Positions 57,832 through 64,000 of a stretch of 64,000 nt of DNA are shown in pieces; the first letter of the stretch is position 1, and the number at the start of each line of letters is the position of its first letter. The position numbers were made by a program, and so were the translations under genes. The notes below the pieces were generated by a model. It worked only from the letters and a program-made list of their open reading frames with translations. It searched no databases and was not told the DNA's origin. The DNA is taken from NCBI RefSeq assembly GCF_003334405.1, contig NZ_QOWM01000003.1; one strand, 5' to 3'. Origin of the DNA: Escherichia coli. Its GTDB lineage: Bacteria > Pseudomonadota > Gammaproteobacteria > Enterobacterales > Enterobacteriaceae.

Positions 57832-59478
57832 TTATTCAATCTCTTCACAGACATCCTGCGTTAAACGCCGCATAATATCTTTTCTTAACAAAAACTTTTG
57901 TATTTTACCTGAGGTAGTTCGCGGTAGTTTTTCGATTACCACGATATGTTCAGGATATTTATATTTTGCGACCCGTTTACGGCTAAAAAAAGCCACTACC
58001 TCTTCCAGCGATAATGAATGATGCGGCGCTTTCAGCACGACATAAGCGCATGATCGTTCACCTAAACGTTCATCGGACATTGCAACCACACAGGCATCGT
58101 GAATTTTAGGATGCTGCAATAAAATATCTTCCACTTCACGGCTGCTAATATTTTCGCCGCCGCGGACAATAATATCTTTTTTGCGTCCGGTAATTTTTAT
58201 ATAGCCAGCCTCATCCATACGGCAGAGATCGCCGCTGTAATACCAGCCTTCTTCATCCAGGGCACGGGCGGTTAATTCAGGTTCATCAAAATACCCCATA
58301 AACACATTGGGGCCACGCGAGGCTTCTTCACCTTCGCAACCTGGCGGTAAGGTCTTGCGTGCGTCATCGACCACTTTAATCTCTACACCTGCGGCAGCGT
58401 AACCATCGGTGTGCATAAAGCGCGACAAAGGATCATCGAGATTCACCACCGCATGCGGCGAACTTTCTGTGGAACCATAAACACTTAATAATTTAATGCC
58501 GCGCTGCTGGCATTCACGCGCCACTTTTTTGGGGATTGTGGTTCCGCCGCAAAGAAAGAAACGCAGCGCTGAAAGGTCCGCGGGTTGTTTCTCTAGTACA
58601 TTCAAAAGATCATAGACAAACGGCGTTGCGCCGAGCATACAGGTGCAACGCTGCTGCTCAAGCAGCGCGAGACACGCATCAGGAGTGAAAATATCTAACA
58701 ACACGCTGCGAGCGCCAATTAAGAATGGTGCCGTTACGCCATGCAGAAAGCCCGTTGCGTGACCAAGTGGCGCAGGCATCATAAAGACATCCTGCCAGGT
58801 CAGATTCAGTCGCGCGCAATAAGCCCGCTCACTGGCGAGAATATTGTTATGCGTTAGCATCACGCCCTTTGGCAGACCCTCGGTTCCGGAGGTAAACAGC
58901 ACCGCAGCTAATTCATCGCCGTGGGTCGTTATCGCCGTGGTCAGTGAGGTATTGTCGGCGATAATCTGACTTAATGAGAGGGAAGAGGTGGCGGGAGCCA
59001 GTTTGTCCACGCCGACAATTTGTTGTAGTTGTGGAAGCTGATTTTGCAGCGGCAGGATTAAATCTACCGGACGCGTTTGTTTAAACAACGTCGGTGCAAA
59101 GAACATTTTTGCCTGACACTTATTGAGCACCCACACCAGTTCTGCTTCCCGCCAGGAAGGCAACAGCGGCACGGAAACTGCACCGATTTTCAGGCAGGCA
59201 AGATAGATAACGGTAAATTCACACCAGCCAGGCAGTTGAAATGCGATGCGATCGCCTGATTCAATACCCTTCGCTAACATCCAGTTTGCCAGACAGCTCG
59301 CGGCGTGATCGAGCGCGCTATAGGTGTACGATGCACCATGATTATCGACCACGGCAATTTTGTCTGGCATCGCACGAGCGGTCTGCTGCCAGTAATCGGC
59401 CAGCGAAGCATCGCCCCATAACCCTTGCTGACGATACGCCGCACGACGTTGTTCGTTAAACGTTAATGTCACTTTCAT
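57832..59478 (-). CDS. fadK: acyl-CoA synthetase (AMP-forming), anaerobic short-chain fatty acid
   Basis: 548 aa from ATG complement 59476..59478 (MKVTLTF); AMP-binding motif TSGTEGLPKG. Confidence 0.9.
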   Translation of the reverse strand: MKVTLTFNEQRRAAYRQQGLWGDASLADYWQQTARAMPDKIAVVDNHGASYTYSALDHAASCLANWMLAKGIESGDRIAFQLPGWCEFTVIYLACLKIGAVSVPLLPSWREAELVWVLNKCQAKMFFAPTLFKQTRPVDLILPLQNQLPQLQQIVGVDKLAPATSSLSLSQIIADNTSLTTAITTHGDELAAVLFTSGTEGLPKGVMLTHNNILASERAYCARLNLTWQDVFMMPAPLGHATGFLHGVTAPFLIGARSVLLDIFTPDACLALLEQQRCTCMLGATPFVYDLLNVLEKQPADLSALRFFLCGGTTIPKKVARECQQRGIKLLSVYGSTESSPHAVVNLDDPLSRFMHTDGYAAAGVEIKVVDDARKTLPPGCEGEEASRGPNVFMGYFDEPELTARALDEEGWYYSGDLCRMDEAGYIKITGRKKDIIVRGGENISSREVEDILLQHPKIHDACVVAMSDERLGERSCAYVVLKAPHHSLSLEEVVAFFSRKRVAKYKYPEHIVVIEKLPRTTSGKIQKFLLRKDIMRRLTQDVCEEIE

Positions 59479-59534
59479 GTTGGACTCTCGAAACAGAACA
59501 TCAGGCCCGAGATGCGGGCCTGTGGGATGCATGA

Positions 59535-59828
59535 TTAGCCGTAGCGAAAATCAATACCGAAGGTGCCTGCGGGATATTGCCACTGTTCGAGAATAGTGTT
59601 ACCGCACAGCACCCGACAGGTGCCGCACTCCAGACAACCGGCGGAATCAAAATGAATGTTTCCTGCGTCATCCTGCTTATAAAGTCCGGCAGGGCAGGCT
59701 TTCATTAATTTATGGAATTCATTGATATCGGGATTTTCCGCCAGAATGATATGCGGGTGGCCCTCATCAACATGGAATTTATTGACGCCTAATTTGATGT
59801 CGACGTTAACCGTAGCGTTCTGGCTCAT
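59535..59828 (-). CDS. ydiT: ferredoxin-like protein (FixX family)
   Basis: 97 aa with Cys cluster (CPAGLY ... CLECGTC). Confidence 0.9.
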   Translation of the reverse strand: MSQNATVNVDIKLGVNKFHVDEGHPHIILAENPDINEFHKLMKACPAGLYKQDDAGNIHFDSAGCLECGTCRVLCGNTILEQWQYPAGTFGIDFRYG

Positions 59829-62127: not shown

Positions 62128-62892
62128 TCAGTTCAGGGCTTTCTTCAGATGTTCCGCCAGCTCGGCAATGGCCTCCGGCGAATCGTTATCGATAATGATG
62201 TGCTTACGTTCTGTTTGCGGCGGTACGCGAATGCCGACCAGTTCAGCAAGTGGCGCGCTCTGGCTCCAGTCAATATCACTTGCCTGCCACTGATTTACCG
62301 GTTTTTTACCCGCGCCGAGAATGGCTTTCATCGAAGGAATGCGTGGCACGTTAATATCGGAGGTGACGCAGAGCACGGCTGGAACAGAGAGTTCAATAAC
62401 TTCAACATCATCTTCAAGCGTGCGTTCAATCACCAGTGTATTGCCCTGACGCTGAATAGCACTCACTGCATTAATCACCGGAAGTTGCAGAATTTCTCCG
62501 ACCAGCAAGCCAACCTGCTGGGCATAAAGGTCGCCGGAACCTTCACCAAAGATCAGTAAATCGAAGCCGATCTTTTCAATTGCTGCCGCCAGCGCTTTTG
62601 CGGTATCGAGAGGCAGTGCATGTTCAAGTTGCGCATCCTGCACCAAATACAGGCTGTGCGGCCCGCGGGATAGCACGTCTTTGCGCACTTTCGAGTTCTG
62701 CAACAATGAGCCGCCAACGGTCAGCGCGGCTATCTCATCGTCATCTGTTGCGAGCTGGCTTGCAGCTTCAATGGCATTGAGATCGAACTGGCTGATTTTG
62801 GCGTCGGCATTGTCGAAATTCAGGGTGTATTCTGGAGTGACAACAATGTCCTGTTCTTCAGGCACCAGCTTAAAGCAGGTTATTATTTTCAT
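62128..62892 (-). CDS. ydiQ: electron transfer flavoprotein beta-subunit homologue
   Basis: 254 aa from ATG complement 62890..62892 (MKIITCF) with AGGAG RBS; the ORF-track 287 aa form is over-extended. Confidence 0.9.
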   Translation of the reverse strand: MKIITCFKLVPEEQDIVVTPEYTLNFDNADAKISQFDLNAIEAASQLATDDDEIAALTVGGSLLQNSKVRKDVLSRGPHSLYLVQDAQLEHALPLDTAKALAAAIEKIGFDLLIFGEGSGDLYAQQVGLLVGEILQLPVINAVSAIQRQGNTLVIERTLEDDVEVIELSVPAVLCVTSDINVPRIPSMKAILGAGKKPVNQWQASDIDWSQSAPLAELVGIRVPPQTERKHIIIDNDSPEAIAELAEHLKKALN

Positions 62893-63207
62893 GATTTCTC
62901 CTGTGAGTCGCATACGGAACCATCTCCGATGGAAGGTAAAAATGGCCTGAAAATAGTGTGCGATAGCGGTGCGGGGTTTTCGACGGAGCAAGCTGTTTTC
63001 CTTGCCAACAATCTTGCAAAAAAAATGCGATCGCTAAAACAAAAGTGCAATTTGCGGCAATATAGTTATTCCATGACCGTACAATCTTGCATTCAGTGTA
63101 AATAATCTTGTTTAGCTCTCGCTAAACGCGGTTGTATAACCGCAATACACGCCGTATTTTATCCGGCATATATTGTTTTTGCTTGCTCATGGAATAGGGA
63201 GGTTGTC

Positions 63208-64000
63208 ATGTATCAACGCTGTTTTGATAACGCCAGTGAAACGCTGTTTGTCGCCGGTAAAACGCCACGGCTTTCACGTTTTGCATTTAGCGATGATCCA
63301 AAATGGGAGTCCGGACATCACGTTCATGACAATGAAACCGAGTTGATTTACGTCAAGAAAGGGGTTGCAAGGTTTACCATCGATTCTTCGTTATATGTCG
63401 CACATGCGGATGACATTGTGGTGATAGAACGCGGCAGGCTGCATGCGGTGGCCTCTGACGTTAACGATCCGGCAACGACGTGTACCTGTGCGCTGTACGG
63501 CTTTCAGTTTCAGGGGGCTGAGGAAAATCAGCTACTGCAACCGCATTCTTGTCCGGTAATTGCCGCGGGGCAGGGAAAAGAAGTCATAAAAACCTTATTT
63601 AATGAGCTAAGTGTGATTTTGCCGCAAAGTAAAAATAGCCAAACATCTTCGTTATGGGATGCATTTGCCTATACGTTAGCCATTCTTTACTACGAAAATT
63701 TTAAAAATGCTTATCGTTCGGAGCAGGGGTATATTAAAAAAGATGTTCTGATAAAAGATATTCTTTTCTATCTGAATAATAATTATCGCGAAAAAATCAC
63801 TTTAGAACAGTTATCGAAAAAATTTCGTGCCAGCGTCAGTTATATTTGCCATGAATTTACCAAAGAGTATCGTATTTCCCCTATTAACTATGTTATTCAA
63901 CGGCGTATGACGGAAGCAAAATGGTCACTCACTAATACTGAATTATCACAGGCAGAGATCTCCTGGCGTGTGGGTTATGAAAATGTCGATCACTTTGCCA
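63208..64000 (+). CDS. ydiP: AraC-family transcriptional regulator, 3' end beyond window
   Basis: ATG 63208 preceded by GGGAGG; ORF runs to window end; divergent from ydiQRST-fadK. Confidence 0.8.
   Translation, partial: MYQRCFDNASETLFVAGKTPRLSRFAFSDDPKWESGHHVHDNETELIYVKKGVARFTIDSSLYVAHADDIVVIERGRLHAVASDVNDPATTCTCALYGFQFQGAEENQLLQPHSCPVIAAGQGKEVIKTLFNELSVILPQSKNSQTSSLWDAFAYTLAILYYENFKNAYRSEQGYIKKDVLIKDILFYLNNNYREKITLEQLSKKFRASVSYICHEFTKEYRISPINYVIQRRMTEAKWSLTNTELSQAEISWRVGYENVDHFA

Follow-up and report, generated by a model that had tools for sequence, protein, structure and literature searches.

The end of a 64,000-nucleotide stretch of Escherichia coli DNA (contig NZ_QOWM01000003.1 of assembly GCF_003334405.1; the whole stretch is called the window here) carries the ydiQRST-fadK gene string and, divergent from it, the AraC-family regulator gene ydiP. 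We found that these genes belong to an 11-gene block, ydiN-ydiB-aroD-ydiF-ydiO-ydiP-ydiQRST-fadK, which is syntenic in at least ten named genera of Enterobacterales, an observation that is new here. Our preferred reading of the block, to which we give an even chance, is an oxidative mechanism that carries electrons from acyl-CoA through YdiO, YdiQR, YdiT and YdiS to quinone. The locus is part of the E. coli "y-ome": its components carry names, serve in reversed β-oxidation engineering and decay in extraintestinal Salmonella, while the substrate, the direction of electron flow and the regulator are unproven, a recognised functional gap of a known locus. The module described in the initial annotation of this DNA, linked to electron-transfer flavoprotein (ETF) and ferredoxin, was itself already known, and its interpretation is the standard, still unproven proposal. 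The question is made easier to test directly by a candidate YdiP operator, by the 11-gene block that reaches beyond the window and by a sequence argument against electron bifurcation, to which a single-cluster YdiT and a corrected fadK start are added.

The locus is the known, catalogued E. coli ydiQRST-fadK string with divergent ydiP, and its gene identities are certain. Positions 57000-64000 match E. coli K-12 MG1655 at 100% identity, and at least 80% of this 7-kb query lies within a single region in 5365 of 5426 complete E. coli genomes. RefSeq, NCBIfam and Pfam bear out the gene identities and positions first assigned, and the contiguous minus-strand layout also holds, with junctions of 19 nt (ydiQ-ydiR), 55 nt (ydiR-ydiS), -4 nt (ydiS/ydiT, an ATGA overlap) and 56 nt (ydiT-fadK). 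The window end cuts ydiP, leaving codons 1-264 of 303 inside. Just past it, on the ydiQRST strand, lie ydiO (acyl-CoA dehydrogenase) and then ydiF (CoA-transferase), with aroD, ydiB and ydiN beyond (RefSeq); ydiO and ydiP are convergent. The partner acyl-CoA dehydrogenase that had been sought for the ETF is thus at hand as ydiO, the next gene outside the window.

Gene context was compared in a one-genome-per-species scan with YdiS, which gave 80 loci whose genes were mapped by tblastn. These loci are of three types, termed here ydi-type, sister type and cai/fix. The ydi-type comprises 32 loci with both ydiP and ydiQ from at least ten named genera of Enterobacterales (Escherichia, Citrobacter, Kosakonia, Intestinirhabdus, Yersinia, Brenneria, Symbiopectobacterium, Serratia, Prodigiosinella and Dickeya), together with metagenome-assembled genomes (MAGs). 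The order ydiN-ydiB-aroD-ydiF-ydiO-(ydiP opposite)-ydiQ-R-S-T is complete in 30 of the 32, and contig edges cut short the other two (L005, L006). Order and orientation of ydiF-ydiO-(ydiP)-ydiQRST-fadK are kept in 31 loci, again from at least ten named genera, and every ydi-type locus that reaches so far has fadK after ydiT on the same strand. The overlap of the ydiS stop with the ydiT start is likewise -4 in every ydi-type locus among those listed, except MAG L047 (-10). Only Escherichia, Citrobacter and Intestinirhabdus retain the ppsA-ppsR-aroH flank. A second ydiN-like gene of the major facilitator superfamily (MFS; 30-37% identity), probably ydiM, stands by ydiN in most Escherichia, Citrobacter, Kosakonia and Intestinirhabdus ydi-type loci (L003-L030 and similar); Yersinia, Serratia and Dickeya loci have a single ydiN-like gene.

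The sister type (L031, L032, L033, L036, L037) occurs in Phytobacter, Citrobacter youngae, Edaphovirga and Budvicia and has no ydiP. On one strand it carries ydiO-like and ydiQRST-like genes, an MFS transporter gene (in all but Edaphovirga) and a fadK-like gene. Because the ydiO-like gene here adjoins the ETF genes directly, on their upstream side, the sister type, a third paralogous ETF module, supports YdiO as the physiological partner. The Phytobacter ursingii locus (L031 1673-14667) has a transporter of the aromatic-acid:H+ symporter family; its divergent arm adds a second acyl-CoA dehydrogenase, a family III CoA-transferase, an MFS transporter and an HpaA-like AraC protein. The latter was considered as a YdiP orthologue and rejected at 18% identity. 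C. youngae carries ydi, sister and cai/fix systems. The features of the window are collected in Table 1.

Table 1. Genes, hairpins and repeats at the ydiQRST-fadK/ydiP locus, in window coordinates.
Feature	Position	Strand	Basis or value
ppsA	55397-57775	+	RefSeq feature mapped onto window coordinates
GC-rich hairpin, 56-nt ppsA/fadK convergent gap	57783-57807		-22.9 kcal/mol (+, z -3.5), -18.1 (-)
fadK (ydiD), AMP-forming acyl-CoA ligase, 548 aa	57832-59478	-	RefSeq, NCBIfam NF004758
Terminator-like stem-loop, ydiT-fadK gap	59502-59522	-	-17.7 kcal/mol, z -2.0; 8 pairs, 7 G-C
ydiT, FixX-type ferredoxin-like protein, 97 aa	59535-59828	-	RefSeq
ydiS, FixC / ETF-quinone-oxidoreductase-type FAD protein, 429 aa	59825-61114	-	RefSeq, NF007450
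Stem-loop, ydiR-ydiS gap, no U-tract	61129-61150	-	-20.3 kcal/mol, z -3.5
ydiR, ETF alpha subunit, FixB type, 312 aa	61170-62108	-	RefSeq, NF008884
ydiQ, ETF beta subunit, FixA type, 254 aa	62128-62892	-	RefSeq, NF008998
Divergent control region, 315 nt, several invariant blocks	62893-63207		MAFFT alignment, 15 loci
Repeat 1 (GCCAACAATCTTGCAAA), ydiQ-proximal, candidate operator half-site	63004-63020	+	Position weight matrix (PWM) 20.9
Repeats 2 and 3 (CCGTACAATCTTGCATT, GTAAATAATCTTGTTTA), ydiP-proximal direct repeats, exactly 21 bp apart	63077-63114	+	PWM 20.8, 17.6
ydiP (csiP), AraC-family regulator	63208-64119 (window holds 63208-64000)	+	RefSeq

The FixABCX/ETF character of the string is confirmed by matches to solved structures in the PDB and by identity to the E. 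coli Fix proteins. YdiQ scores 499.8 bits against NF008998 (cut-off 338) and YdiR 689.1 bits against NF008884 (cut-off 528); as adjacent genes 19 nt apart whose products both exceed their family cut-offs, the two encode ETF β and α subunits. The best PDB match of YdiQ is CarD of the caffeyl-CoA reductase-Etf complex (6FAH_B, E = 1e-22), and bifurcating Etf β chains match it with E values from 1e-22 to 3.4e-16, as against 3.6e-13 to 1.8e-12 for human and Paracoccus ETF β. YdiR matches both bifurcating and non-bifurcating EtfA chains (best eight from 2e-37 to 7e-30, the rest to 6e-24). YdiS reaches 976.6 bits with NF007450 (cut-off 466) and also passes the FixC model (639.2 against 610); its best solved match is chain C of the quinone-linked Thermotoga maritima EtfABCX complex (7KOE, 5.6e-70), with pig ETF-quinone oxidoreductase (ETF-QO; 2GMH) at 2.3e-24. 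A GAGVAG dinucleotide-binding motif at residues 12-17 of the N-terminus and the full-length similarity place YdiS in the FixC/ETF-QO type. In a transposon screen, overexpression of ydiS and not of ydiT gave resistance to (S)-equol in E. coli BL21 (PMC5994542), a phenotype that no current model of the locus explains.

YdiT scores 143.9 bits against the FixX equivalog model, below the cut-off of 166, which is expected because it is a paralogue; as a 62% identical, sub-cut-off paralogue it was rejected as FixX itself. Its only solved match is chain D of 7KOE (E = 3e-14). We aligned the cysteines of YdiT, FixX and 11 further enterobacterial homologues (n = 13) with those of Thermotoga EtfX. C45(P) and C65xxC68xxC71 are invariant in 13 of 13 enterobacterial proteins and in EtfX, a set suited to an Fe-S cluster. 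EtfX (7KOE_D, 9 Cys) has four extra cysteines, CxxxCxxxxC...C, that are absent from the enterobacterial proteins; in this segment the latter have a 3-residue deletion and no cysteine. Judged from its residues, YdiT has the cysteines for one Fe-S cluster, not two, and lacks the pair of [4Fe-4S] motifs described for bifurcating FixX proteins (PMC6085437). A second difference lies in the EtfB motif, which reads DGDTAQVG in three solved bifurcating ETFs and DNDMNATG or DDDCNQTG in two non-bifurcating ones. Both YdiQ and E. coli FixA read DLYAQQVG, with no more than the terminal QVG in common with the bifurcating type. We take single-cluster YdiT, and less clearly the YdiQ motif, as evidence against electron bifurcation, short of proof.

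FadK scores 1086.9 bits against NF004758 (cut-off 736) over residues 1-547 of 548, and its translation shows the ANL motifs TSGTEGLPKG, YGSTE, SGD, GRKKDIIVRGGENIS and SGKIQK; full-length, above cut-off and with the adenylate-forming core motifs, it is a member of the medium-chain fatty-acid-CoA ligases. The open reading frame taken in the initial annotation, which ran to ATG 59532 (566 aa), over-extends the gene. NC_000913.3 has the same 566-residue form (L088 6978 onward), and the NCBI pipeline PGAP has 548. The 18-residue extension is translated intergenic hairpin (59479-59534), and its ATG reads ACG in other Escherichia species, while the MKV start is kept across genera. Because NF004758 begins at MKV, the upstream ATG is lost and the gap length is not kept in frame, we favour the conserved 548-residue start at 59478 and reject the longer one, whose ATG is not conserved even within Escherichia, as spurious. 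Antisense within fadK, 59166-59182 (+) is an exact match to GCGGCACGGAAACTGCA, intragenic sigma54 binding site IA15 identified by chromatin immunoprecipitation (ChIP) and sequencing (PMC4591121).

The preferred oxidative chain combines these components. FadK, or YdiF by CoA transfer, would make a medium-chain acyl-CoA that YdiO would dehydrogenate; electrons would then pass from the FAD of YdiO to that of YdiQR, to the single Fe-S cluster of YdiT, to the FAD of YdiS and into the membrane quinone pool, which would feed nitrate or other anaerobic respiration. Such a chain would amount to mitochondrial ETF plus ETF-QO split into separate polypeptides, probably reversible and not bifurcating. Reportedly, going by its title, Gulevich 2016 assigned ydiO and ydiQRST to an anaerobic acyl-CoA dehydrogenase complex. 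A review (PMC9329746) sums up the proposal of anaerobic β-oxidation and the activity of FadK on C6-C8 acids, which also speak for the chain. Salmonella comparative genomics assumed anaerobic β-oxidation via ydiFO, ydiQRST and fadHIJK, genes that decay, together with ydiP, in extraintestinal serovars (PMC3967523).

Several points weigh against the oxidative chain. CaiA, the closest characterised paralogue of YdiO, is reductive in vivo. With menaquinone (-74 mV) as acceptor, acyl-CoA oxidation (~-10 mV) would run uphill, so that demethylmenaquinone or ubiquinone would be needed. The best solved matches of FadK are salicylate-AMP and 2,3-dihydroxybenzoate-AMP ligases (E from 7e-78 to 1e-67), with fatty-acyl-CoA synthetases ranking behind at ~1e-57, so that its closest solved relatives are aryl-acid adenylating enzymes. 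The module is also dispensable, because natural strains carry insertion sequences (IS) in fadK and ydiQ: IS1 lies inside fadK, annotated as a pseudogene, in natural E. coli isolates (L094, strain 26561), and an IS3-family element lies at the start of ydiQ in one isolate (L095, strain CUPF09). A size difference of ~776 bp was seen in 6 of the 10 best BLAST hits and proved to be IS1 in the one opened (H1). The 2022 review (PMC9329746) states that YdiQR were given a role in anaerobic growth on fatty acids only because they lie near fadK, with experimental evidence lacking, that transcriptome studies failed to reproduce the induction of fadK under anaerobic conditions, and that neither FadR nor CRP is known to exert control. 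The same review agrees with the earlier statement that substrate and electron acceptor are only partly defined. Deletion or overexpression of YdiO barely altered butyrate formation in reversed β-oxidation strains (PMC13126070).

The ydiT-fadK gap bears on how far fadK is coupled to the genes before it. A promoter and terminator scan of 57600-64000 returned counts equal to the shuffled expectation (8 vs 7.7 and 7 vs 7.8), and only the ydiT-fadK hairpin was kept from its output. This stem is followed by AUGUUCUGUUU, and the element may serve in attenuation or in mRNA stability. Loci of other Escherichia species that cover it keep the stem but vary in the loop. Outside Escherichia the gap is 35 to 241 nt long, and a stable stem-loop of different sequence occupies it in most loci listed. 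Published data bear on both sides of the gap: ydiQ, R, S and T change together 20-32-fold in the transcriptome of a shikimate-producing strain, with fadK not listed (PMC4015609), and a genomic-SELEX table treats "ydiQRST-fadK" as one transcription unit (PMC9962212). We take ydiQRST to form one mRNA, with transcription probably continuing through the attenuating hairpin into fadK. Of the co-transcription suggested at the outset, the ydiQRST part stands on these joint array changes; the coupling of fadK is uncertain because the terminator-like hairpin separates it from ydiT.

It is possible, if somewhat doubtful, that fadK is instead transcribed on its own and functions independently of ydiQRST, lying next to it for historical reasons. 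The terminator-like hairpin with its U-rich tail, the variable gap with a stem-loop in most loci listed and the absence of fadK from the co-varying genes would fit such a unit, as would a transporter gene between the ydiT-like and fadK-like genes in four of five sister loci (L031, L032, L033, L037) and in the divergent ydi-type MAG L047. Against it, fadK also follows ydiT on the same strand in all five sister loci, the SELEX table gives one unit, and the scan found no promoter in the 56-nt gap; a minus-strand candidate inside ydiT (59803-59776, 9/12) is no better than shuffled expectation.

Other structured elements frame the transcript. The hairpin in the ppsA/fadK gap, after which AUUUAUUUUAUUU comes next on the minus strand, is likely a bidirectional intrinsic terminator for ppsA and fadK, at which the fadK transcript would end; the terminator scan missed it because its loop exceeds 8 nt. 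The ydiR-ydiS stem-loop lies directly upstream of the ydiS Shine-Dalgarno sequence AGGGAG and is not conserved in sequence, since this gap ranges from 22 to 125 nt in other genera. An Rfam scan of 55000-64000 at E<=1 gave no match. Past the window end, the 42-nt ydiP-ydiO convergent gap (L001 13121-13162) is near-entirely a perfect GC-rich hairpin, GGCGGCGCAG...CTGCGCCGCC, likely a bidirectional terminator.

Upstream of ydiQ, the ydiQ-ydiP spacer was aligned with MAFFT in 15 loci from Escherichia, Citrobacter, Kosakonia, Intestinirhabdus and a soil MAG labelled Proteobacteria. Invariant blocks stand within otherwise diverged sequence, and three of them are same-strand copies of [AT]ATCTTG[CT], at 63010, 63083 and 63104. 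The motif occurs nine times in the whole window, counting both strands, and repeats 2 and 3 form the window's sole ATCTTG-N15-ATCTTG pair. Repeat 1 is present in 31 of the 32 ydi-type loci covering the spacer (at least ten named genera); a possible degenerate partner, GCAAGCTGTTTTC (62987-62999), lies ~21 nt away and is invariant in the 15-locus alignment. Repeats 2 and 3 keep their 21-bp spacing in 25 of 32 loci, which span Escherichia to Dickeya, and loci of the Citrobacter freundii group and MAG L047 have one exact copy at that position. The distance from repeat 1 to the pair varies from 73 to 337 bp and is 251-337 bp in the Yersinia-to-Dickeya loci. A weight matrix built from the repeat sites scores at most 13.2 in windows sampled from the remaining window. 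The repeats are absent upstream of ydiO-QRST-fadK-like clusters without ydiP, and the ATCTTG motif is absent from the aroD-ydiF and cai-fix spacers.

Direct repeats at 21-bp spacing fit the half-site geometry of AraC-family regulators, as at araI1-I2, and because of this resemblance we propose the ATCTTG direct repeats as a candidate YdiP operator. YdiP has a cupin-type N-terminal domain (Cupin_2 7.6e-11 / AraC_binding 2.4e-10, residues 28-144) and a C-terminal helix-turn-helix (HTH_18 1.6e-20, residues 202-281) in Pfam matches of the full protein, which makes it a member of the AraC/XylS family. It would bind some acid or CoA ester and act at the three repeats on ydiQ and ydiP, with ydiQ-R-S-T transcribed on one mRNA from an activator-dependent promoter in the 315-nt spacer and fadK read through the partial terminator hairpin. 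A relaxed sigma70 search of the spacer found no ydiQ-strand candidate of at least 8/12. On the ydiP strand, TTAGCT-17-TATAAC (63112-63140) and TACACG-17-TATATT (63146-63174) score 8/12, with two others tied, and repeat 3 abuts a possible ydiP -35 element. Inspection of the conserved spacer blocks by eye gave no acceptable FNR, CRP or sigma54 site, and a sigma54-like reading of TTGCCAACAATCTTGCA was rejected on its GG/GC spacing. The term "anaerobic", which the initial annotation attached to the route, comes from literature proposals and not from the sequence, in which the ydiQ strand has no convincing FNR site, CRP site or sigma70 promoter. A literature search for FNR, ArcA or NarL control of ydiQ returned nothing relevant.

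YdiP as regulator of ydiQRST-fadK is unproven. Its divergent position, already noted from this DNA, holds in all 32 ydi-type loci covering the junction (at least ten named genera); its control of the locus, in turn, does not follow from published ChIP sites, which lie elsewhere. For exonuclease ChIP (ChIP-exo), the PMC8464067 supplement lists five YdiP sites under aerobic glucose, at sdhC, uxaB, secG, cspA and yihQ, with signal-to-noise of 1.7-5.5. A genetic-interaction study renamed YdiP CsiP, a cold-shock regulator, on the basis of cspE and cspA binding and cold-sensitive filamentation, with ChIP-seq, qPCR and phenotypes tying it to csp genes at 15 C; ydiQ, ydiO and fadK were not found in the accessible part of its supplements (PMC9283627). 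The published binding data thus leave out the ydiQRST-fadK locus, which weighs against local control. So do the five ChIP-exo regions themselves, taken with a +777/+1977 shift from an older genome version to NC_000913.3 at which the named genes matched: their best motif scores run from -2.4 to 5.4, at the level of the background (mean 2.9, 95th percentile 9.1). Either the repeats are therefore not YdiP sites, or the weak peaks are not YdiP's specific operators.

These data leave a less probable alternative in which ydiP does not regulate its neighbours: YdiP would be the cold-shock-linked CsiP acting elsewhere, and the repeats would bind a different factor. The five ChIP-exo sites and the csp data favour it. 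On the other side, the experiments used aerobic glucose or cold shock, not anaerobic conditions or an organic-acid inducer (PMC8464067, PMC9283627), and no candidate inducer was present; the ChIP-exo signal is low, several of its peaks sit at very highly expressed genes, and the peaks share no match to the repeat motif. Local control is favoured by the constant divergent position of ydiP and by conserved spacer repeats, including the 21-bp pair, that occur only where ydiP is present. Sequence divergence is faster in YdiP than in the neighbouring proteins: identity to the Yersinia protein is 65%, as compared to 92% for YdiO. Separately, a peak sequence from FlhDC genomic SELEX maps to 63215-63257 (-), within ydiP codons 3-17 (ATG 63208-63210), and was assigned to "ydiO > ydiP > ydiQ" (PMC9962212).

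The direction of electron flow could also be reversed. In a reductive, cai/fix-like module, which we consider unlikely, quinol or NADH would pass electrons through YdiST and YdiQR to YdiO, which would reduce an α,β-unsaturated acyl-CoA, the acid serving as electron sink and not as carbon source. The 48% identity of YdiO to CaiA, annotated as crotonobetainyl-CoA reductase, and the 45-62% identity of the Fix-type proteins are consistent with this direction, as is the caffeyl-CoA reductase Etf as best solved match of YdiQ. After YdiO's own model, NCBIfam ranks crotonobetainyl-CoA dehydrogenase and acryloyl-CoA reductase. In reversed β-oxidation, ydiO and ydiQRST have served as the enoyl-CoA reductase step, but the same work calls the importance of YdiQRST for catalysis unclear (PMC10318755). 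The minimal butyrate change on deletion and overexpression speaks against reduction too, the block has no counterpart of the caiD hydratase or the caiT transporter, and no candidate acceptor substrate is known.

A more speculative proposal, which we rate as a long shot, is that the block is a cai/fix-like CoA-thioester pathway for a cyclic (alicyclic or aromatic) carboxylate, not fatty-acid β-oxidation, switched by YdiP via the ATCTTG repeats. The substrate would perhaps be derived from quinate or shikimate, similar to the gut conversion of shikimate to cyclohexanecarboxylate. Several hints point this way, none decisive. The genes ydiN-ydiB-aroD, for a transporter, a quinate/shikimate dehydrogenase and a dehydroquinase, stay joined to the block in 30 loci while the other flank changes. 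FadK is related to the salicylate- and dihydroxybenzoate-AMP ligases, and its second-best NCBIfam model is cyclohexanecarboxylate-CoA ligase; the C6-C8 acids on which it is most active in vitro (Morgan-Kiss and Cronan 2004, cited through PMC9329746) match a C7 ring acid in size. The sister cluster carries the aromatic-acid:H+ symporter-family gene and the HpaA-like regulator, and the 20-32-fold change of ydiQRST was seen in a shikimate overproducer (PMC4015609). Least probable of all is a bifurcating YdiQRST, in which NADH oxidation would drive reduction both of quinone (or of enoyl-CoA via YdiO) and, at the same time, of a low-potential ferredoxin or flavodoxin: the ABCX architecture, the 7KOE matches of YdiS and YdiT and the QVG end of the YdiQ motif fit it, but other Etf chains match YdiQ and YdiR better than 7KOE, YdiT and 12 other enterobacterial homologues keep four cysteines with a deletion at the other motif, and the rest of DLYAQQVG departs from the bifurcating sequence.

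Among known systems, the Acetobacterium woodii CarA-E system has the same enzyme classes as the ydi block (CarD-YdiQ 1e-22, CarC-YdiO 1.9e-45). It differs in its Etf α, CarE (6FAH_A, 396 aa), which is ~64 residues longer N-terminally than YdiR, and in being strictly reductive and bifurcating without a FixC/FixX-type quinone module. A review gives two [4Fe-4S] motifs to the Etf of the Car complex, naming the subunit as CarD (PMC6085437). The four-subunit A, B, C, X set of Thermotoga EtfABCX and of diazotroph FixABCX is present in ydi, and YdiR (1.1e-33) and YdiQ (1.5e-10) match 7KOE as YdiS and YdiT do. Unlike these bifurcating complexes, ydi has one-cluster rather than two-cluster ligands in YdiT, a different EtfB motif in YdiQ and no evident nitrogenase or other ferredoxin-demanding context. 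ETF with ETF-QO resembles the preferred chain in its order, in which electrons would pass from acyl-CoA dehydrogenase to ETF, to an Fe-S/FAD protein and to quinone; besides the YdiS match to the pig enzyme, YdiQR match human and Paracoccus ETF. The Fe-S domain is fused in ETF-QO, whereas YdiT is a separate protein of 97 residues, and YdiQ matches bifurcating Etf β more strongly than the human and Paracoccus proteins.

The ydi set is a paralogue of cai/fix. Differences lie in the CoA-transferase, which is family I in YdiF and family III in CaiB; in the lack of the caiD hydratase, caiE and the caiT antiporter from the ydi block; in the regulator, an AraC-family protein between the two halves of ydi as compared to CaiF; in the dehydrogenase and ETF genes, which share a strand in ydi and are divergent in cai/fix; and in the ATCTTG repeats, which the cai-fix spacer does not have. 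Nonetheless, YdiQ is 56% identical to FixA, YdiR 45% to FixB, YdiS 61% to FixC, YdiT 62% to FixX, YdiO 48% to CaiA and FadK 29% to CaiC. Both systems include a CoA-transferase and a single-cluster FixX-type protein, and in both the C and X genes share an ATGA-type overlap. Because of these identities, we regard ydi as a second copy of the design that joins a CoA ligase, a CoA-transferase and an acyl-CoA-dehydrogenase-type enzyme to FixABCX.

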